The notes under the pieces: generated by a model | The model's input: only the letters and a program-made list of their open reading frames with translations | The model's database searches: none | Told to the model about the DNA's origin: nothing | Position numbers and translations under genes: made by a program | Shown here: positions 50,301 to 60,500 of the stretch, piece by piece | Layout: the number at the start of each line of letters is the position of its first letter | Numbering within the stretch: the stretch's first letter is position 1 | From: Natator depressus | Taxonomy: Eukaryota | NCBI RefSeq assembly: GCF_965152275.1 | Contig: NC_134246.1 | Span: 34,468,151-34,532,150 of the forward strand | Reading direction: 5' to 3' | Length of the DNA stretch: 64,000 nucleotides

Positions 50301-51799
50301 AGCTGGGATTCCTGGGCACACATTTTAGATGCTAAACTATTGGAAGGGGGAAGAGCCATAAAACCAGGGCTGGAGCAAACAGCTGGCAGAAAGAGGCCGA
50401 CAGAGCGTGGGCACTGTAGTTCGCCACCCCTCACCTGTGCTCTCTCCCCCGGCTCCGGGGTTGGGGCTGGCCCCACCATCCCGGGGTCTCTTTGGTGCTG
50501 AGGGCCGTTGTGGGGATGAGAAGCCAGGGACAGAGCTGGGCTCAGATGCCCCATCGTCATCCACAGCATCTGTGGAGAGAGGCCACAGGTCAGAGGGGGA
50601 GGGGAGGGTGCCACACCCCAGAGCTGGCCGCATCTCAGTGCCAGGCGAGCCACCCTGTGCATCGTCGCTATGACCCAGCTATGCCTAGCATCAGATTCTC
50701 CGGCCAGCTCCCTGGGGGATGATTAACGACTATCGAGCTTACGCTCTGATAGCGAGGCCTGCCCCACTCCGGGTACCTGAGACCTGCTCACCAACCGGAA
50801 CTGGGCCCTGGGAGCCTGAACCCCTTCCCCCAGCTTCCCACAGAGCCCGCTCTACCCACTAGGCCCCACTCACCTCCCAGAGCCAGGGAGAGAACCCAGG
50901 AGTCCTGGCTCCCTTCGTACCTGACTCCCTCCGTTCCATCCGGCGCTGGTGTCCGGTTCTGACGTTGGTCTGGGTCATCTGGGCCGTGTCCAATGTGTAG
51001 CGGGTCTGGCTGAACGTCACCTCTAGGCTGGGCCCCCCGTTGCCGCGCCGCGCACCCTCCAGCGCCAGGCAGGTGTCGGCAGGGTAGGGCAGCCACTGCC
51101 CCTCTTTGTCCCCCTGCCAGCACCACACGAAATCTGGGCCGCGGGCATCCTGTTAGCTCCCTGCTGGCGCTAACCCCTAGGGGGCCCTGCAGCTCCCAGC
51201 CTCTGGGGCAGTGACTGTGACGGGGCATTGGACCCAGGTGTCTAGGTGGCTGTGCAGGGTGTTCACCCCTGGGGGCCCCACAGCTCCCAGCGTCTGGGGC
51301 AGTGACCATGACTGGGCATGGGACCCAGGTGTCCGGGCAGCAGAGCAGGGTGTTCACCCCTAGGGGGCCCCATAACTCGGGGGAGTGATCAGGACAGGGC
51401 ATGGGACCCAGGCGTCCGGGACAACACTGCTCCCCCCACCAGGGCTCCCTGGGCACTCACAGGAGTCCTGGTCCTGGATGGCTGCTGCCACGCATCTGTC
51501 CTGCCCCATCTGTCCGTTCTGCTGCACCATCCGCCGCAGGTCCACACAGGAGCCCACAGTCACGCTGGGCTTCCCTGCCCTGGGGGGAGATGGAAGCGGC
51601 TCAGGGCCTGTGACTCCCCCACCACAGCCCAGGTCACGACATGCCCCCGCCAGGGCACTCACCTGGCCGCTTGTGTCAGTACCTCGCTCTGCTCAGGCAC
51701 GAAGCAATGCCAGGTGCCGCCAGGGTCCTGCCACTCCCAGCGCAGCTCCAGTGCCAGGCCCACGTCTCCTGCCTCGGCTACCCTCCGCTTCCGGCTCAT
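44173..51799 (-). CDS. PARP2: PARP2 (poly(ADP-ribose) polymerase 2): coding region of about 18 exons (span includes introns), with an N-terminal extension encoding two WWE domains
   Basis: Minus-strand exons, approximate coordinates (±2): A 51663-51799, B 51461-51579, C 50921-51133, D 50435-50569, E 49422-49492, F 49134-49184, G 48899-48998, H 48668-48743, I 48497-48593, J 47997-48150, K 47552-47690, L 46530-46593, M 46312-46446, N 45964-46088, O 45553-45652, P 45305-45403, Q 44958-45083, R 44173-44337. Human PARP2 matches: [16 protein letters not shown] (E), [17 protein letters not shown] (F), [32 protein letters not shown] (G, WGR domain), [26 protein letters not shown] (H), [28 protein letters not shown] (I), [20 protein letters not shown] (J), [23 protein letters not shown]…[17 protein letters not shown] (K), [21 protein letters not shown] (L), [25 protein letters not shown] (M), [18 protein letters not shown] (N), [33 protein letters not shown] (O), [21 protein letters not shown] (P), [10 protein letters not shown] (Q), [33 protein letters not shown] (R). 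Confidence 0.88.
46790..47170 (+). mobile_element. Partial internal copy of the MITE-like family, in PARP2 intron L/M
   Basis: …ggcatgttccccatccgggtcctaggcctaggggcagccagggggctctgcatgctgcc…caatgggagctgtggggg…gaacatgccactgc… It is followed by a 3x tandem of cacccctgagccaggccgcctg at 47095-47165. Confidence 0.45.
48235..48545. repeat. Three to four degenerate tandem copies of the 3' end of PARP2 exon I plus its splice donor
   Basis: On the minus strand: ctgcacatggacagccaacccccc|gtgagtgtgacccc (the real junction, 48480-48545), then ctgcacatggacagctgacccccagtgtgacccc and ctgcacatagacagccggccccctgtgagtgtgacccc (decayed copies). Confidence 0.6.
49640..50170 (+). mobile_element. Degenerate CR1-type LINE reverse-transcriptase fragment, in a PARP2 intron
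   Basis: The frameshifted plus-strand translation gives [21 protein letters not shown] … QAGFTENK … [11 protein letters not shown]. These match the CR1 RT motifs YRPVSLTSIPGKIMEQLIRDS, QHGFMENRS and [13 protein letters not shown]. Confidence 0.6.
50435..50569 (-). CDS. PARP2: PARP2 coding exon D: acidic and basic low-complexity linker with a KRPR nuclear-localisation-like motif
   Basis: Acceptor ctctctccacag|at and donor cacag|gtgagg. Encodes (D)[44 protein letters not shown]. It is phase-compatible both with exon C upstream and with the conserved PARP2 exon E ([17 protein letters not shown]) downstream. Confidence 0.6.
50921..51133 (-). CDS. PARP2: PARP2 coding exon C: complete WWE domain 2
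   Basis: Acceptor ggcccag|at. Encodes (Y)[70 protein letters not shown] with donor tcag|gtacga. This is a textbook WWE: W-x-W-(7)-W-x-Y … LE … Y-x-LD-x-x-x-M-x-Q-x-N-x-x-TG-x-x-R. Confidence 0.6.
51461..51579 (-). CDS. PARP2: PARP2 coding exon B: second half of WWE domain 1
   Basis: Acceptor ttccatctccccccag|g after a ~90-nt intron. Encodes (R)[39 protein letters not shown] with donor ctcct|gtgagtg. It carries the WWE C-terminal signature Y/C-x-[IV]-D-x-x-x-M-x-Q-x-N-x-x-TG-x-x-R. Confidence 0.55.
51663..51799 (-). CDS. PARP2: PARP2 coding exon A: start codon and first half of WWE domain 1
   Basis: Kozak-like ccaggATGa. Encodes [45 protein letters not shown] with a consensus donor cag|gtgagt that gives phase 2. 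The basic MSRKRR start resembles the mammalian PARP2 start MAARRRRS. Confidence 0.6.
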
Positions 51800-51879
51800 C
51801 CTGGGAGTGACGAGGGGGCTGGCGAGCAGAGAGAAAGGAGGCAGGGATCCACAGACTGTGATCCCCAAGCCATATAGCC

Positions 51880-52470
51880 CCATATGAACCATTCTACTGC
51901 AATCCATACAGCCCTGTATGGACCAGCACCGCTCCAGGCCATATAGCCCTATACAGACCATCCTACCGAAATCCATACAGCCTGTATGGACCAGCACACA
52001 CACATCCCAGGTCATATAGCCCCATACAGACCATTCTACTGCCATCCATACAGCCATGTGTGGACCACCCCCCCTTCCAGGCCATATAGCCCTGTACAGA
52101 CCATCCTATCGAAATCCATATAGCCCTGTATGTACCATCACAACCCCCGCCCCCAGGTCCTAGAGCCCCAGATGGGCCATTGTACTGCAATCCACAGAGT
52201 CTCTTATCCACCCCTCCGGCAATATAACCCTATATTGACCAGGCTACGGCAATCCATACAGCTTTGTGTGGATCAGCAGCCCCCCCCCCCCCATTTAGCC
52301 CTATACAGACCAGCCTATGGAGATCCACGCAGCCCTGTATATACCAGCAAAACCCAGCCCTGTATGAATGAGCATGTCCCCTCCCGTCCCCCGGCCAATC
52401 ACACAGCCCTATATGGACCATCCCACCATAATCTACGGAGCCATCCATGAACCAGTTCCCTCCCCTGCTG
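51880..52470. repeat. Satellite-like tandem array (~66-bp unit ×~9) in which each unit holds the palindrome CCATACAG-CC-CTGTATGG, starting ~80 bp upstream of the PARP2 ATG
   Basis: Unit ≈ ccaggccatatagccctatacagaccatcctaccgaaatccatacagccctgtatggaccagcacc. Dispersed related units are at 53320-53580, 53900-54200 and 54400-54450. Confidence 0.7.
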
Positions 52471-53106
52471 CAACTCTGCAATAGCTCCGGACCCCACTGA
52501 GTCCCCCACCCCCAGTGCAATATCCTAACCCTCCGTGCAATCTGCCCAGGACCCTTACTCCCTGCGCCCAGAACACCCCACCCCCCGACTCCCAGAGCAC
52601 CCCCTCCCCCACTGCATGCCCCCAGGCCGCCACTGCAACCCCAGCCCTGTTGCACCCCCTAGGGTCGCCCTGCATTCCCCCTCAACCCTCCCCCACTGCA
52701 ACCCCAGCTCCATAGCACTCCCTAAGGTCCCTCTGCACCCCTCCCTCACTGCAAACCCACCCCCTTGCACCGCAACCTCTCCCTCACCCTTCCCCCAATG
52801 CTCACCCGCCCCATTGCATCCCCTTAGGGTTCCCCTCCCCCCACCTGGCGGCGCGGCGGCGGCGGCGGCCCTCACCAGCCTGGGCGCTCCAGGGAACGTT
52901 CCAGTAACCGAACTCTCGCGCAGCCCACCCTCATTTGCATATCGCTCATTTGCATTAGCCCCGTCCCCTGCCCTGGGCGGTCGCTGGCGTAGAGGGGCCC
53001 GAGCCCCGCCCCCTAAGCAGTCGGGCGGGTTGGCGCGCAAAGCATTATGGAGACACACACCTAGCTCACCCGCTCGGCGACACTCAACGGCGGGCGGAGC
53101 CGGTTC

Positions 53107-53291
53107 ATTTGCATAGCGGGGGTGGTGCATGCTGGGAGTTCGCGCTCTCCTTTATACCCCCCCTTTAGACCCTTCTTCTGTGCAGAAGTGGAAGGGGTGC
53201 GATTTGCATACGCCATGGCTCATGCCGAAAGTTGCTCCACTCGCTCACCGTCACCTTTTAAGACAGAATATCAGGGAGCGTTATATAGCCC
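53107..53291 (+). promoter_or_regulatory. Pol III type-3 (snRNA/H1-like) promoter module: octamers ATTTGCAT (53107-53114 and 53204-53211), PSE-like TCACCGTCACCTTTTAAGAC (53248-53267), TATA TTATATAG (53284-53291)
   Basis: The octamer to PSE to TATA spacing (PSE start to TATA ~38 bp) is nearly identical to the compact human H1/RPPH1 promoter, where octamer to PSE TCACCATAAACGTGAAATG to TATAAG is 39 bp. Two more octamers lie at 52965-52972 and 52979-52986. The module is on the strand opposite to PARP2, as for mammalian RPPH1. Confidence 0.45.
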
Positions 53292-54946
53292 CTAACCCTA
53301 CCAGGGCTGCCTCTCAGAAGGTGACCAATTCATACTCCCGTCTCCAAGGCCATCCAGAGCTATATAGGCCCTGCAACCTCTCAACAGCCAGTGGTTCAGT
53401 GTGATGGGCCTGAGGGGGTCCACAACCCCACTCAGCCTGCTTCCTCTCAAGTAGACAACGCTGTATGGATCCTGAACCCTCTGTACAGCCACCCTGTATG
53501 TGCCTTGCACCCTCCTTGCTGCCTGCCATAGGTCATATAAACCTGTATGGGCCCTGCAGTCTCCCCACAAACTCATGCAAACCAGCTGTCAGATGGGATA
53601 AACCCCCCCGCCATTCCCCCAGAGCCATGGGGAAGATAAAGTCACTGACAGTTGTGACGGGCTCAGATACTATTGTGAGATCCGGGTCTGTGAATACGGC
53701 CCAGAGCTGCCCACCGACTGAGGAGGCCAACCCAAGATATTGACCTGCTGCTTATTCCATGCAACCGAAAAAGGCAGGGTCTGGGTGCTGGACATCACGC
53801 AACCCTGTTCTTAGGGCTGTAGGGTGATACAGCCCGCATTGAGCCGCTGGCTATGTTTTCAGCAATTGACCTTGTGACCTTCACTTGTTCCCCCTTTGGA
53901 TGCAACAGATAATTACATCAGGGCAATACAGCTTTGTCGGTTGGGATTGCTCTACCCCAGGCCATATATTCCAGTACAGACCAGGAGGTAATTGTATACG
54001 GACCCTTCCCCCAACCCCTTATATGGTTTCACAACCCAATTCAGAGCATTCTCCTCCAAACCCTTTTACATCTGACCTCCTTCCACCCAGGCCTTATTAT
54101 CCCATATTGACCAGCACCCCTTTGTGGGCTCTTACAGAATAAAGCCATCTCACCCACTACAGACACATGCCAGGCCATATATCCCAATCCAATCTGGTCC
54201 ATGCGATCAGGCATAGCTTTTTAATGAGGAGAGTAATTAACCACGGGAACAATGTCCCAGGAACCGGGTGGATTCGCCATCGCTGACACTTTCTAAATCT
54301 TGCTCAGATGTTTCCCCAAAAGACCGGCTCCAGGAATTGTTTGGGACTGTTCTCTGGCCTGTGAGATACTAGGTCAGTCAAGAAGATCACAATGGTCCCT
54401 TATGGCCTTGGAATCTATGAAGCCCCCTGCCTGGGCCGATATAGTCCCATATGGACCACAGGGACTCGTAGCCCAGTTCAGATCACTGGAACCCTCCCCA
54501 AGATCCTGTATAGATGGCCCCAGTCTGGTTATTATAACTCATCCAGACCAGGACTCGGGCAGTTTCGCTAATCCAGCCTATTTCAGGCTGGCCCATAAAG
54601 CCACTACAGACCAGCCCCCCCCCCCCGCCCCCTGTCCCAACTATGGGCCCTTCTGCTCCTCCCCCCATGCAGATTATCTTCTTCCTCTCCCCCCAGATTT
54701 TCAGCTTGCCTCCTCTCACCTGGGAGCTCCGGACCAGGGGAGAGCATTACGCTCACAGTGCATGCTGGGACCATGTGTCCTGCCCCTCCTCCCCACCCAT
54801 GAGCTCTGAGGCTGGGCGTGACCCAGGTGTGGGTAGGACACCACATACCATTGGGGAGGGTGGCTTCCCAGTGGGATGAAGGCCCCTGGGGCCAAGCTCC
54901 CGGCCCCTGAGGAAACAGGGATTGTCTCACAAAACGGTACAAATGC

Positions 54947-54952
54947 TTTATT
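54947..54952 (-). promoter_or_regulatory. AATAAA polyadenylation signal (minus strand), probably for the zinc-finger gene
   Basis: Plus-strand tttatt in caaatgctttatttcaaaacag lies ~480 nt 3' of the ZNF stop codon. Confidence 0.4.
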
Positions 54953-55429
54953 TCAAAACAGAAGCATCTGCCCATCTGAACCCAGCCCCAGCTTCCCCTC
55001 CTCCCCACATGCAGCCTGCAGCCCGCAGCCCATCCTCATCCTCGTGCCGGCGGTAGCTGGGCCCTGAACTCCAGAGCCGGGAGCTGGCAAAGATCCCAGC
55101 GGCCAGCACCTATCTGGTGGTGGAGCTAGCGCCTGGCTCCCAGCACAGTCTGGCTGTAACGGCACCCAGCGATGGAGGGGGCAGTTCCCCGGCTAATTGC
55201 TCTCGAGGTGCAAACACGGCCCCTGAGCTCCCGGCCAACTTCGTCTCACTGCTGCTACTGCAGCTGGGCCTCGTGGCTGGGCAAAGGGGCCGTGCCGAGC
55301 ACTCTCCCTGCCAGGCTGGTGCCAGCCTTCTGCCTGCCCCGCCTCACTGAGGGCCTTTTGGGGGCGCTGCGCCCGGCACGGGCTGAGGAGAGCACAGCGT
55401 CCAAGCATAGCGCTAGGGCCAGGACAGGG

Positions 55430-56803
55430 CTATGTAGTCCCCGTGGCAGAGGACACAGGGCTAGGGCTCTCTGTCTCCAAGGACCCCCAGCGGGCAGCAT
55501 CCCCGGTGGCCGGTGGGCAGCGCCCCTTGGCCCGGGCATGGGTGCGCTGGTGCACCACCATGTTGGAGCGGCGGTGGAAGCGTCGGCCGCACTGTGGGCA
55601 GGCGAAGGGGCGCTCGGCCGTATGGGTGCGCTGGTGACGGATAAGATTGGAGCTGCGGTGGAAGCGTCGGCCGCATTCGGCGCAGGCATAGGGCTGCTCG
55701 CCGGTGTGGGTGCGCCGGTGCACAGTGAGGGCCGAGCTCTGGGCAAAGGCCTTGGGGCAGTCAGGGCAGCGGTAGGGGCGCTCACCGGTGTGGCTGCGCC
55801 GGTGGGTGGCCAGGTGGGAGCTCTGGGCGAAGGCCTTGGGGCAGTCGGGACAGCGGTAGGGCCGCTCGCCAGTGTGTGTGCGGCTGTGCACCACCAGGTC
55901 AGAGCGCTGGGCGAAGCTGCGCCCGCAGTCTCCACAGCGGTAGGGTGATTCCTCCAGGTGGGCCCGCTGGTGGCGCCGGTGCACCGTGCTGTGGGCGAAG
56001 GCCAGGCCGCAGATGCCACAGCGGTAAGGCCGCTCCCCGGTGTGGGAGCGCCAGTGGCGCAGCAGCTCCGAGCTGCCAGGGAAGCCCTTCCCACACTGGG
56101 CGCAGCGGTAAGGCCGATCGGGCTGGTGCGTGCGCCGGTGCTGCGCCAGGTTGGAGCCGGTGCTGAAGCCCTTGCCGCAGTCGGCGCAGCGGTAGGGCCG
56201 CTCCCCGGTGTGGGTGCGGCCATGCACAGCCAGGTCGGCGCGCCGGGCGAAGGCCTTGGGGCAGGAGGGACAGGGGAAGGGGCGCTCACCGGTGTGGGCC
56301 CGCCGGTGCACTGCCAGGTTGGAGCGTTTGCCAAAGCGCCGGCCACACTCGGGGCAGGGGTGGGGGCGCTCGCCCGTGTGTACCCGCCGGTGCTTGGCCA
56401 GGCCCGAGCTCTGGGCGAAGGCCCGGCCACAGTCCTCGCAGGCGTAGGGGCGCTCGCCCGAGTGCGAGCGCCGATGCACAATCAGCGTGGAGCTTTGCGA
56501 GAAGGCCTTGCCGCACACGCTGCACCCGTACCGCCGGGGGCGCACCGGGACAGCCTGTCCCCTGGCCCTCGTCTGCTCCCCCTCCCCCATGGCCTGGCTC
56601 CCATGGTCCCCCTTCCTTCGGCTGCCCAGATCTGAGAGCGTCCCCGTGTCTCCATGTGCCTCTTCCCGCCACACATCCGGCCCTACGTCTCCACTAGCCT
56701 GGTGCCCGCCGTCCCCCTCCTGCTGGGGAGCACTGGCTCCACCCCGCCGCGGGGACGCGAGCCCAGCTGGGGTCAACATCACAGGAGGGGTCCCCTGGGC
56801 CAT
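55430..56803 (-). CDS. C2H2 zinc-finger protein: 13 tandem fingers on a single 457-codon exon
   Basis: Minus-strand ORF MAQGTPPVMLTPAGLASPRRG… followed by 13 repeats of the type Y-x-C-x2-C-x-K/R-x-F-x5-L-x2-H-x-R-x-H-TGE-R/K-P (for example YGCSVCGKAFSQSSTLIVHRRSHSGERPYACEDCGRAFAQSSGLAKHRRVHTGERPHPC…). No KRAB or SCAN domain lies in this exon. The acceptor-like tttctcctcccgcag sits 22 nt upstream of the ATG in an open frame, so upstream coding exons are possible. Confidence 0.8.
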   Translation of the reverse strand: MAQGTPPVMLTPAGLASPRRGGASAPQQEGDGGHQASGDVGPDVWREEAHGDTGTLSDLGSRRKGDHGSQAMGEGEQTRARGQAVPVRPRRYGCSVCGKAFSQSSTLIVHRRSHSGERPYACEDCGRAFAQSSGLAKHRRVHTGERPHPCPECGRRFGKRSNLAVHRRAHTGERPFPCPSCPKAFARRADLAVHGRTHTGERPYRCADCGKGFSTGSNLAQHRRTHQPDRPYRCAQCGKGFPGSSELLRHWRSHTGERPYRCGICGLAFAHSTVHRRHQRAHLEESPYRCGDCGRSFAQRSDLVVHSRTHTGERPYRCPDCPKAFAQSSHLATHRRSHTGERPYRCPDCPKAFAQSSALTVHRRTHTGEQPYACAECGRRFHRSSNLIRHQRTHTAERPFACPQCGRRFHRRSNMVVHQRTHARAKGRCPPATGDAARWGSLETESPSPVSSATGTT

Positions 56804-56879: not shown

Positions 56880-57500
56880 CTCTGGGGGTGGGGAGGGAGG
56901 TGTAGAGTGGGCCAGTTGGCAGCCCGGACTCCTGGGTTCTATCCCAGCTCTGGAAGGGAAGCGGGGGGGGGGTGTCTAGTGGTTTTGGTGGGGGGAACCC
57001 CAACTCCTGTGTTCCAAGCCTAGCGCGGGGGGGGGGGGGGGAGTGGGGACTAGTAGCTTGGGGCGTTGTGGGGCTGGGAGTCCAGCCTCCTGTGTTTTGC
57101 GCCCAGCCCGGGGAGGGGGGTCTAGTGGCTGGCGGGGGAGGGGGCCGGACTCCTGGGTTCCGAGCCCAGCCCGGGGTCTAGTGGCTGGCGGGGGAGGGGG
57201 CCGGACTCCTGGGTTCCGAGCCCAGCCCGGAGTCTGGTGGCTGGCGGGGGAGGGGGCGGGACTCCTGGGTTCCGAGCCCAGGCCGGGGTCTGGTGGCTGG
57301 CGGGGGAGGGGGCCGGACTCCTGGGTTCCGAGCCCAGCCCGGGGACTAGTGGCTGGCAGAGGAGGGGGCCGGACTCCTGGGTTCCGAGCCCAGCCCGGGG
57401 ACTGGTGGTTGGCGGGGGAGGGGGCCGGACTCTTGGGTTCCGAGCCCAGCCCGGGGACTAGCGGCTGGCGGGGGAGGGGGCCGGACTCCTGAGTTCCGAG
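56880..57500. repeat. Tandem array of about 9 SINE-derived units (~59 bp) immediately 5' of the zinc-finger gene
   Basis: Repeating unit gggtctagtggctggcgggggagggggccggactcctgggttccgagcccagcccgg from ~57040 to 57500, preceded by single SINE copies at 56880-57040. Confidence 0.7.
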
Positions 57501-60500
57501 CCCAGCAGCCGAAGCGGCCCCCACCCCCACAGCGCTGGCCCGGCTCAGCTCTTACCGCAGGGGGCGCCGCGCTCCGCTCGGACACCGCTCAGAGCCAGTG
57601 TCCCCGGGCCAGACTACTACTCCCGGCATGCCCCGCGCGGGACTGCAGCTCCCGGCATGCCCCGCGGGGCCTCCCCGCTCCTGTGCTGGGAGGGTGTATG
57701 GCCCTGTACCCCCAGACCTGCCATTGCACCCCAGCTCTCCCTGTGCACCTTCAGACCCTGTATCCCCAGCTCCCCGTGCACCCCAACTGTGCACCCCCCA
57801 TCCCATACCCCCAGCTCTGCTGTGCACTCCAGCCCCTCAGTATCGCAGCCCTGCCAGTACACCCCAGCTATCCCCAGGTAACCCCAGACCCTGCACCCCC
57901 AGTTCTGCCCCTGCATCCCAGCCCCTCTGTATCCCAATCCTACCAGCGCATCCAGTCCCTCTTCACCTCAGCTCCCTCTGTGCACCCCCAGACGCTGTAC
58001 CCCCATTGCTCCCCATGCACCCCCAGACCTGCCCCTGGCTACACCCCAACCTACTTCACAGCTCAGCCCCTGCACCCCCAGCCACTCTGTATCCCAGCCC
58101 TGCAAGTGCACCCCAGCTCTTCTCATGGACCCCCCCACCGCTGTATCCCCAGCTCTGCCACTGTACCCCAACATCCCTCTTCCTGCACTCCCCAAAGTAT
58201 TTGGGGAAAAATCTCCCTGTGAGTGGATCCTGGGAGGGGAGGGGCATTGGGAGCAGGGGGTAGGGAACAGGAGGAGAGGGATTTGGGGCTGCAGTGAGGA
58301 GAGGGGGGCTATGGGGAGGGAGATAAATGGGGTTGGGTGGCAGGGGAGGGGAGAGAGGTTGGGATTGGAGGTGTTGGGGAGGGGACACTGGGGAGAACAG
58401 GAGAAGGGGCAACTGTCAGCCCCACTTGCTCTCTGCTCCTGTGTGTGCTCCCAGATCTGAGGGGTCCAGCCCCTAGGTGGGACAGAGCCCCTCTCCCTGC
58501 CCCCCGACCTGTGTGTGCGGGGATTCAGGGCCCCCTTCACCCCTTTCTGGCCCCTCCCCCAGTGCCCTTTCCTCCCAGCCTGCCTGTTGAAGGGCCCTGA
58601 AGTCCCCATGCTAGGCTGGGTTTTCCAGCAATTTACCATCCTCATCTCACCAACAACTGCTGCCACCTGCTAGCGTGAGGCTGCCCACCGCCTGGACTGC
58701 GGCCACATAACCCCCATTGCGACGGCCTGCTCCAGGGGGCTGGAAGGAAGGTGGGGTGGGCAAGCTTTTGGTCTCTTCACCATGTTCCTGGACTCTTGGG
58801 GGCACAAGGGGGCTGGGAAAGGAGGGGAAGAGCTTTGTGCATCTCAGCCACCACGGGGCTCATGGTGGAGCACTACACTACCTGTGTTCATGGGGAGTCA
58901 CAGAATGAGGGCAGAGTTAAGGTGACGCAGGCACCCTTAACGGTGCATTTCCTGCTTTGGCCAGGTTTCGTTTGGCATGCTTCAGCATTCTGCAAAGGGA
59001 CAATCTGCTGCCAAGCAGCCTGAACTACGTGTAGATGCGGATTACGGAGAGCTGGGTGTGTGTGCACGGAGATGACAGCAGTGCAGGAAAGTTGCTACTC
59101 ACAGTTCTTCCCATAGTCCAACCCATTCCCCTCTGGGCTGCGATGAACAAAGGGTTAATGGCCAGCCTAGCCCATCCACGGCATGCTGGGAGGAGTAGTC
59201 CACCAGCAGCAGGGATGCTGGGAGTGATAGTTCTTGGCCACTTTCCTATTAGGGTTAGGGTGTGTCTTTCCAGGACACCTCTCTTCACATTGCAGGTTCG
59301 GGGTGGGATTCAGTCACGGCACAGGGGCTCGAAGGGAGATGCCAACTCACCCAGCCCCCCCACTCTAGCCACTGCACCTCACTCTCCTCCCTGAGCCAGG
59401 ATAGAACCCAGGAGTCCTGGCTCCCGGGCCCCCCCCCACTCTAACCACTAGACCCCACTCCCCTCCCAGAGTTGGCATAGAACCCAGGAGTCTTGGTGCC
59501 CAGCCTCAACTTCCATTGGATCCCAAAGCCTAGAGTGGATTTTGGGGACGAAGTGCAGAGGAGCCTGGGACACAGGTTATGTAGCAGCGGGGCCGGGGGG
59601 TTGCCCATCCCTGGGGGCAGGGAGAGTACTAGCCACTCAGGGCATCCCTGGGTCACTGAGCCACCTAATTCCCTCCCCCCATAGGGATTGGCACTGGGCA
59701 AGCCATGGGCGCAGGAGACTGGCGCCTCCTGCTAAACCAGCTTCGCCGAGACCAGAGCTGTGCCCCGGGCCGAATCCAGGACCCAAGGCGGTGGTGGGCC
59801 TGAGGGGTGCTGAGCCTGGGGACTGGGGCAGCCGGACTGAGACCCAATCTGCCTCCCTGTGGGCTGAGCTGTAGGGGTCCCTGGAGGGAGGGGTTGTTGG
59901 CTACCCAGCCAGATCTCTGCCTGTGGGGCTGGGGCAGGTGCCAGATCCGCTTCAGAGCAGCTTTCGAATCCCCATTACCTGGAACCTTGGCGCATATCTT
60001 GGGGGCACTGGGTCTGGTGCATGAGCCCAATTGGGGCCATTTGCCCAGGTGGTGCCTGAACTGCAGCCCCGCCCCACAAAACCAGCTTCTCTTACATTCC
60101 CAAGCTTTTCCCAGCATTGCTGGGCTGGGAGTTGAGGAGGAAACCCGGGCATTGCTCCTGGCATGGTGGGGGCCATGGCACGGAGGTTGCAAGTTGAAAC
60201 CTGCCCCTGGGTGGAGATCTGCCCGGGGCTCTTGGCGAATATTTATTCCGGGGAGATGTAAGCTGCACCCAGCGGGCAGTTCAGACAGGGCTCAAAGAGC
60301 TTTTGGGAAGCAATTGAAATGCCCCATGTGACCGCTGGCTGGAAGGGGGAGGTGAATTAGTGGGCAGAGCCCAGCCAGACCATCTCTTTCAATTCCCAAC
60401 CTGGGGAATCTCTGTGTGGTGTTATGTGCAGCTGTTCCCCAGCTGCCCCACCCCAGAGCTAGCTGCATTTCAGCATGGGGTGAACCACCCTCACGCAGGA

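Follow-up and report, generated by a model that had tools for sequence, protein, structure and literature searches.

A 64,000-nt stretch of the Natator depressus genome (NCBI RefSeq assembly GCF_965152275.1, contig NC_134246.1, positions 34,468,151 to 34,532,150 of the forward strand), referred to here as the window, carries the gene PARP2 on its minus strand and, head-to-head with it, what is likely a turtle-wide pseudogene of RPPH1, the gene for the RNase P RNA, behind an orphaned promoter that has stayed close to consensus. The promoter is orthologous in position to that of crocodile RPPH1 and has the anatomy of a type-3 promoter, and no RPPH1 gene was found at the PARP2 locus in any of the eight turtle sequences compared. 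Two fragments of RPPH1 lie downstream of the promoter, and the region has been disrupted in ways that differ from lineage to lineage.

Synteny of PARP2 and RPPH1

A bidirectional PARP2-RPPH1 promoter is known in mouse and human (Ame et al. 2001, as cited in PMC3082894). A search of the 64-kb window with a PARP2 protein query (tblastn) placed minus-strand PARP2 exons at 44176-49496, and the clean exons matched Natator depressus PARP2 models at 100%. A translation of PARP2 stitched together from the window had its closest match in sea-turtle PARP2. The first coding exon of a RefSeq-type PARP2 model (P0002) lies at 52955..52887 on the minus strand, so that PARP2 starts just left of the promoter and the two units are arranged head-to-head.

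We compared the window with PARP2 loci, each taken with 10-kb flanks, from seven other turtles [Chelonia mydas (L001), Emydura macquarii (L002), Trachemys scripta (L004), Carettochelys insculpta (L005), Gopherus flavomarginatus (L006), Mauremys mutica (L008) and Platysternon megacephalum (L009)], from the crocodile Crocodylus porosus (L003) and from the lizard Tiliqua scincoides (L007). The eight turtle sequences, consisting of the window and these seven loci, cover Pleurodira, Trionychia, Testudinoidea and Chelonioidea. Full-length matches to the Rfam model RNaseP_nuc (RF00009) were detected in Crocodylus porosus (134.5 bits; L003 9481..9170, about 520 bp from the PARP2 start) and in Tiliqua scincoides (195.3 bits; L007 7902..7574), in both cases divergent from PARP2. 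This bears out an initial annotation of the window, which had placed a type-3 promoter at the syntenic RPPH1 position. The block of proximal sequence element (PSE) and TATA box in turtles can be aligned with the PSE and TATA box of crocodile RPPH1, and the crocodile has the same pair of an octamer and GCTGGGAGG about 150 nt upstream of its PSE.

RNaseP_nuc, which has a gathering threshold of 28 bits, gave no match in the window or within 10 kb either side of PARP2 in Chelonia, Emydura, Trachemys, Carettochelys, Gopherus, Mauremys and Platysternon. As the absence extends over Pleurodira, Trionychia, Testudinoidea and Chelonioidea, the loss of RPPH1 from this site predates their common ancestor. 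Rfam as a whole returned no match at the gathering threshold in the 64-kb window, none at E ≤ 10 in positions 52300-55000, and just two chance-level matches to unrelated families in positions 53590-54090 with lax filters. The initial annotation had recognised no RNase P RNA downstream of the promoter, and this stands. Nothing relevant was detected in the window and its sub-windows for RNase P, MRP, 7SK, U6, Y and vault RNAs, the families it had named as worth searching, or for all other Rfam families.

Anatomy of the predicted promoter

The plus strand, opposite PARP2, is predicted from its motifs to hold a vertebrate-type type-3 promoter of RNA polymerase III (pol III) at the syntenic RPPH1 position. 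Its proximal part consists of an octamer (ATTTGCAT, 53202-53209, with 7/8 columns invariant), a PSE (TCACCGTCACCTTTTAAGAC, 53245-53264; identified from the sequence, a composite search and the turtle alignment) and a TATA box (TTATATAG, 53281-53288), all on the plus strand. The octamer start precedes the PSE start by 43 nt, and the TATA box, with its TATATA, starts 37 nt after the PSE start. The first nine positions of the PSE (TCACCGTCA, 53245-53253) fit a TCACCNTNA-type core. With a 17-nt definition of the PSE the gap to the TATA box (TATATAG at 53282) is 20 nt, as expected of a type-3 promoter, the canonical gap being 18-22 nt and the spacing specifying pol III rather than pol II (PMC1790723). 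Pol III starts about 30 nt past the TATA box (PMC1790723), and the start predicted here (TATA + 30) is close to 53312 (range 53309-53316). The composite pattern TCACCNTNA-N26-30-TATAWA has a single match in the 64-kb window, was found in 0/100 dinucleotide shuffles and was found again at the orthologous site in four other turtles.

Upstream lies a distal sequence element (DSE) consisting of an octamer (ATTTGCAT, 53107-53114) and a Staf/ZNF143 site (53121-53138), both entered on the plus strand from the sequence and the turtle alignment. Read on the minus strand, the Staf site (CTCCCAGCATGCACCACC) has CCCR at positions 3-6 and C at position 12, in agreement with the definition of the site in PMC3082894. 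A second, degenerate Staf site (53214-53231, minus strand), recognised from the alignment and the same definition, stands beside the proximal octamer, so that the element at 53107-53138 is joined by an octamer with a decayed Staf partner. Two further distal octamers (ATTTGCAT, 52933-52940 and 52948-52955, plus strand) lie inside RefSeq PARP2 exon 1, with 15/16 columns invariant in five durocryptodiran lineages. All four plus-strand octamers fall within 277 bp, and the only other octamers in the 64 kb are two on the minus strand. A TTTATA at 53151 was considered as a second TATA box and dismissed, being confined to sea turtles and lacking a PSE.

The initial annotation had thus named the right motifs on the right strand, opposite PARP2, with positions that needed correction: its octamer at 53204, PSE at 53248-53267 and TATA box at 53284-53291 belong at 53202, 53245-53264 and 53281-53288. 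Its octamer at 53107 was exact, and those given at 52965 and 52979 lie at 52933 and 52948, having been placed about 31 nt too high. Its distance of about 38 nt from PSE to TATA box was found to be 37 nt, and its octamer-to-PSE distance of about 37 nt to be 43 nt.

RPPH1 fragments downstream of the promoter

We searched for diverged remains of the gene with a profile hidden Markov model (nhmmer) made from the RPPH1 sequences of crocodile, lizard and human; the results hold when the human one is left out. The best non-self match in 272 kb was at 54025-54066 on the plus strand of the window (GGTTTCACAACCCAATTCAGAGCATTCTCCTCCAAACCCTTT). It covers the 3' end of what we term fragment B (54025-54067, plus strand), which contains a match to conserved region V (CR-V) of the RNase P RNA (ACCCAATTCAGAG, 54034-54048), the 3' strand of P1 and a terminator TTTT at 54064-54067. 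This tail scored 9.7 bits with nhmmer, a result equalled in 0/2000 shuffles of the 811-nt downstream region, and E = 4e-4 with blastn. An orthologous tail match was found in 6/7 other turtle loci, with none in Carettochelys. The 5' part of fragment B (53626-53712, plus strand) contains the GGGGAAG motif GGGGAAGAT (53630), a P3-like hairpin (GTCAC..GTGAC) and a CR-I-like block (GGTCTGTGAATACGGCCCAGAGCTGCCC, 53685-53712) that corresponds to positions 67-93 of crocodile RPPH1. The turtle consensus of this block (GGTCTGTGAATACGGCCCAGGGCTGCCC, window 53685-53712) aligns with model positions 68-96 and is collinear with the tail (nhmmer E = 0.007 in 540 nt), and the distance from the 5' motif to the block is 55 nt, compared to 61 nt in the crocodile. 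The interior of fragment B (53713-54024, plus strand) has no recognisable similarity to RNase P RNA. It contains the first run of four T (T4) past the predicted start, a TTTT at 53856-53859, 544 nt downstream of that start.

Nearer the promoter, and within the first 150 nt past the predicted start, lies fragment A (53367-53462, plus strand), a decayed 3' third of RPPH1 with a CR-IV-like AGTGTGAT and a CR-V-like ACAACCCCACTCAG. It aligns with positions 210-318 of crocodile RPPH1, with 68/115 alignment columns identical, and was matched by nhmmer at E = 0.008 in the window and 2e-4 in Chelonia, where AGTGCAATGGGCC is retained exactly as in the crocodile. Shuffled sequences did as well in 1/1000 cases for the window, 0/1000 for Chelonia and 0/1000 for Platysternon. 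The turtle majority consensus, which is dominated by one superfamily, gave no nhmmer match to fragment A. The direct alignment with the crocodile and the shuffles reject a chance match and show fragment A to be genuine in the sea turtles and in Platysternon. The initial annotation, which saw no conserved-region motifs downstream, had missed both this RPPH1-like stretch at 53367-53462 and the ACCCAATTCAGAG followed by TTTT at 54034-54067.

The two fragments are separated by a satellite-like spacer (53463-53625, no strand assigned) of degenerate copies of the CCAGGCCATATAGCCCTGTACAGACCA family. Degenerate units of the same family, which forms an array at 51863-52463, also occur before fragment A as well as between A and B. 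Both RPPH1-like tails start with CACAACCC and are followed by satellite-like units, an arrangement that would fit a partial tandem duplication. As expected of a pseudogene, the remains have significant similarity to RPPH1 at the ancestral locus and on the gene's strand. Three other candidates in the region were set aside. A match of 53297-53324 to RPPH1 positions 95-127 (E = 0.37) overlaps the region before the start and was treated as chance; GGCAGGGTCTGGG at 53773 resembles a CR-I/CR-II relic by eye alone, is missing in Emydura and has no nhmmer support; and a tRNA or a tRNA-derived short interspersed element as the origin of the GCCGGTAGCTCAGTG-like stretch of the spacer was dropped, ARAGORN having found no tRNA.

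Decay of the remnants

Neither fragment has the parts of a working RNase P RNA. No CR-IV is recognisable in fragment B, the only CR-IV-like motif being that of fragment A, and no single molecule was found with CR-I, CR-IV and CR-V able to form P4. Read by eye, the two P1 strands of fragment B are not complementary and P4 would pair at 4/5 positions. The predicted fold of fragment B is no more stable than that of shuffled sequences (z = -1.4).

The remnants have also been broken up separately in different turtles. Trachemys has lost the equivalent of 53609-53685 and Gopherus several pieces, with the 5' part of fragment B partly deleted in both. Fragment B is interrupted by an insert of 655 nt in Platysternon (L009 8659-9314) and of 1133 nt in Mauremys (L008 8132-9265), at the equivalents of 53668 and 53675. 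The two sites are at most 7 nt apart, the sequences inserted are unrelated and that of Platysternon has an AT-rich start; they are probably independent transposon insertions. Identity of fragment B to other turtles is 81-85% with gaps, which is not above the best PARP2 introns (86-87%). With lineage-specific deletions, insertions of 0.65-1.1 kb and an identity at the level of introns, no purifying selection on the remnant was detected.

The layout of the region that would be transcribed is equally variable. The GGGGAAGATA motif of fragment B, retained in five turtles, lies 199-607 nt from the predicted start, a distance that takes in fragment A and the spacer. The first T4 is 364-753 nt past the start, at non-homologous places among turtles, and in Gopherus there is a TTTT at the predicted start itself.

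Conservation and decay of the promoter among turtles

The six durocryptodires share the order of octamer, Staf site and PSE (CTCACCNTCA), with CTTATATA 37-38 nt on from the PSE start. The PSE core CTCACCNTCA is retained in 5/6 of them, and Trachemys has single changes in the octamer and in the PSE. Five turtles (Platysternon, Mauremys, Gopherus, Emydura and Carettochelys) have an intact proximal Staf site. It is mutated in Trachemys and in the sea turtles, the latter with TTCG in place of the CCCR core. Emydura lacks 35 nt bearing the PSE, and Carettochelys has the PSE core with no TATA box at the right spacing. On this alignment the ancestral turtle promoter is predicted to be compact and H1-like, with the order octamer-Staf-PSE-TATA and, as in the crocodile, an additional octamer-plus-Staf pair about 140 nt upstream. 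The compact promoter on the human H1 pattern that the initial annotation had described is thus ancestral for turtles in its order of elements, with the proximal Staf site decayed in Natator depressus itself. The distal Staf core GCATGCTGGGA (window 53126-53136) is identical in 7/8 turtles and differs by a single change in Mauremys; no other element between the genes, including those specific to pol III, is as well conserved.

Across five durocryptodiran lineages, 21/26 columns of the core (proximal octamer, PSE core and TATA box) were invariant compared to 52/164 local non-motif columns (Fisher P = 3e-6). This excess was not significant against the well-aligned block of fragment B, in which 71-76% of columns are invariant (P = 0.32), so that a constraint on PSE and TATA box is possible but unproven. 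In the transcribed region (53289-53480) only 17% of columns were invariant. For scale, a sea turtle and Emydura are about 77% identical in alignable non-coding DNA.

A probable dead gene behind a surviving promoter, and the alternatives

We consider it likely that the locus is a turtle-wide RPPH1 pseudogene with an orphaned promoter, which is the relic that the initial annotation had listed among its options; the RPPH1 fragments and their lineage-specific disruption favour it. In the history that we propose, the RNase P RNA gene at the PARP2 site would have been destroyed before the living turtle lineages diverged. A partial duplication or deletion would have put fragment A, the 3' third, directly behind the promoter and left a second, promoter-less copy, fragment B, about 320 nt downstream with satellite-like DNA between the two; both may have drifted neutrally since then. 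The locus would then yield no functional RNase P RNA. The RNA of RPPH1 is an essential ribozyme, and a working RPPH1 would thus be expected elsewhere in turtle genomes; we give only a very slim chance to turtles lacking any canonical RPPH1. A role in the divergent PARP2 promoter as well is a plausible reason for the survival of the octamers and Staf sites, mutation of the single Staf site of human PARP2-RPPH1 being known to lower expression in both directions (PMC3082894). The PSE and TATA box may persist through the slow decay of turtle sequences, of which the 77% identity between sea turtle and Emydura is a sign, and some remaining promoter function may contribute. If the promoter fires, its transcript would be unconserved and about 0.4-0.75 kb long, would consist of debris of RPPH1 and of satellite, and would end at the first T4 (53856 here). 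Several points weigh against this history. The relocated RPPH1 that it calls for is one that we infer; the 21/26 compared to 52/164 invariant columns hint that the promoter is under selection although its gene is dead; the similarities of the CR-I-like block and of the 5' motif are weak when each is taken singly; and the order of the fragments (3' third, 5' part, 3' end) requires at least one duplication plus deletions, in a series of events that cannot be reconstructed.

The alternative that deserves most weight, doubtful as we hold it to be, is that the promoter is an active pol III unit under selection, exapted after the loss of the gene either for a turtle-specific non-coding RNA or because divergent transcription of PARP2 needs Oct-1, ZNF143, SNAPc and TBP bound there. 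The near-consensus PSE core, TATA box and proximal octamer with their 37-38 nt spacing in all six durocryptodires speak for it, as do the invariant core columns (21/26 against a local background of 32%). So do the roughly 30 additional PSE/DSE units in the human genome that yield regulatory pol III RNAs (PMC1790723) and the two-way effect of the human Staf mutation (PMC3082894). Set against these are a transcribed region with only 17% invariant columns, the shifting distances to the remnant (199-607 nt) and to the first T4 (364-753 nt), the TTTT at the start in Gopherus, the loss of PSE or TATA box in Emydura and Carettochelys, a core conservation that is not above well-aligned neutral DNA nearby, and the destruction of the proximal Staf site in Natator depressus. 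We hold it improbable, if not negligibly so, that selection kept the promoter for more than 100 million years in hard-shelled cryptodiran turtles after the RNase P RNA gene had died, be it because normal PARP2 expression requires pol III factors or transcription at the site or because a turtle-specific pol III RNA is built there from RPPH1 debris and satellite. The different small pol III RNA offered by the initial annotation is unlikely, as the transcribed region is unconserved and its first T4 stands 364-753 nt away at varying places.

It is very improbable that a functional, highly divergent RNase P RNA, encoded by fragment B (53626-54067) or by A and B together, has escaped the models. The landmarks of fragment B come in roughly the right order (GGGGAAG, the P3-like hairpin, the CR-I-like block, a near-perfect CR-V and a T4), and RNase P and MRP RNAs often go undetected by models in bird assemblies (PMC4378963), so that calls of absence need whole-genome checks. 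RNaseP_nuc, however, gave no match even at E ≤ 10 with lax filters, compared to 134 bits in the crocodile and 195 bits in the lizard; fragment B has no CR-IV, non-complementary P1 strands and a P4 at 4/5; its internal TTTT at 53856 would stop pol III, and it lies about 320 nt from the promoter. The deletions in Trachemys and Gopherus, the 0.65-1.1 kb insertions in Platysternon and Mauremys, a conservation at the level of introns and a fold no better than shuffles point the same way. The highly divergent RNase P RNA that the initial annotation had entertained was rejected for its lack of a covariance-model match and its lineage-specific deletions and insertions. We find it hardly credible that the motifs are a chance cluster or purely PARP2-related sites (octamers, GC boxes and a TATA-like run) with no pol III history, common as octamers and Staf sites are in bidirectional pol II promoters (PMC3082894). 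The composite pattern was absent from 100 shuffles, other turtles have conserved it at the orthologous site, it aligns with the PSE and TATA box of crocodile RPPH1, and significant RPPH1 fragments follow on the same strand. An assembly artefact is an unlikely source of the RPPH1-like fragments, which recur in independent assemblies of seven species.

PARP2 models and other features of the locus

The RefSeq-type PARP2 isoform X5 (P0002, 52887-52955, minus strand) begins MQMSDMQMR, and its ATG codons are the reverse complement of both distal octamers (ATGCAAAT). The octamer pair is thus within the modelled exon 1 of PARP2, and the start codon of this model is doubtful. The satellite array at 51863-52463, in the 5' region of PARP2, is built of 35/70/142-nt units of the CCAGGCCATATAGCCCTGTACAGACCA family. 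A Natator 'unnamed protein product' (P0121) has its residues 1-132 encoded at 52057..51662, with 100% identity. Its coding sequence has thus been modelled across the satellite, in all probability through an error of annotation.

Between the RPPH1 debris and the end of the window, an open reading frame of 457 aa (55430-56803, minus strand) encodes an array of about 11 C2H2 zinc fingers with an 84-nt period. Chelonia, Gopherus, Mauremys and Platysternon each have a predicted gene of about this size in the corresponding position, the likeness being one of size and position. At 57117-57506 a GC-rich 56-nt unit is repeated in tandem in seven copies with 93% identity. Among the comparison loci, Emydura has PARP2 exon-like matches lying side by side and intronless at L002 878-1838, about 9 kb upstream of PARP2, which may be a processed or partial PARP2 copy, and the upstream edge of the crocodile locus (L003 1-523) carries a PARP-domain gene.

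Significance and comparison with known systems

A literature search on turtle RPPH1 or a reptile census of RNaseP_nuc found nothing, and the loss of RPPH1 from this site in turtles is apparently previously undescribed; it adds a further example of a known thing, a pseudogene with a surviving promoter. The head-to-head pairing of PARP2 and RPPH1 is present in mammals according to the literature and in a lizard and a crocodile according to our searches, and every turtle examined has only wreckage at this site, so that, early in the history of turtles, the gene of this universal ribozyme would have changed its place or arisen anew from a duplicate. An early loss in turtles would date a rare relocation event and would offer a natural experiment on what becomes of a bidirectional pol II/pol III promoter once its pol III partner is lost. 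For annotation, the locus is a warning that prediction of RPPH1 in turtles guided by synteny or by the promoter will lead to a dead locus. The interest is modest and lies mainly in the fate of an essential ribozyme gene at an otherwise deeply conserved address.

The H1 (RPPH1) gene of human and mouse shares with the turtle locus the head-to-head arrangement with PARP2, the order of octamer, Staf site, PSE and TATA box, and a start about 30 nt past the TATA box. In human H1 the PSE and TATA box are about 38 nt apart and the octamer and PSE about 29 nt, compared to 37 and 43 nt here; the compact human promoter was reportedly described by Myslinski et al. in 2001. The turtle promoter is less compact, having as in the crocodile a second octamer-plus-Staf pair 138 nt upstream of the PSE. 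It differs further from human and mouse H1 in that no RNase P RNA gene stands behind it and that the proximal Staf site is mutated in Natator depressus. RPPH1 of the crocodile and of Tiliqua has the same position and strand relative to PARP2 as the turtle remnant, and the crocodile PSE and TATA box are alignable with those of turtles. In these two species the gene is intact (134 and 195 bits), whereas in turtles it is fragmented, rearranged, interrupted and without a covariance-model match, fragment A matching positions 210-318 of crocodile RPPH1 and fragment B positions 67-93 and the 3' tail.

The snRNA gene-like PSE/DSE units of the human genome (e.g., 21A; PMC1790723) resemble the turtle locus in having PSE, TATA box and octamer without a classical small RNA, and in both the product may be a non-coding RNA several hundred nt long that ends at a T4. 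The human units have been shown to be transcribed, and one to be functional (PMC1790723), whereas the turtle unit is known from its sequence and is followed by the unconserved debris of a known gene. A precedent for a change in where and how an animal lineage encodes its RNase P RNA comes from insects and crustaceans, whose RNase P RNA genes have come to lie in introns of pol II genes and no longer have a pol III promoter of their own (PMC4287351). There the gene survives without its promoter, whereas here the promoter survives without its gene.

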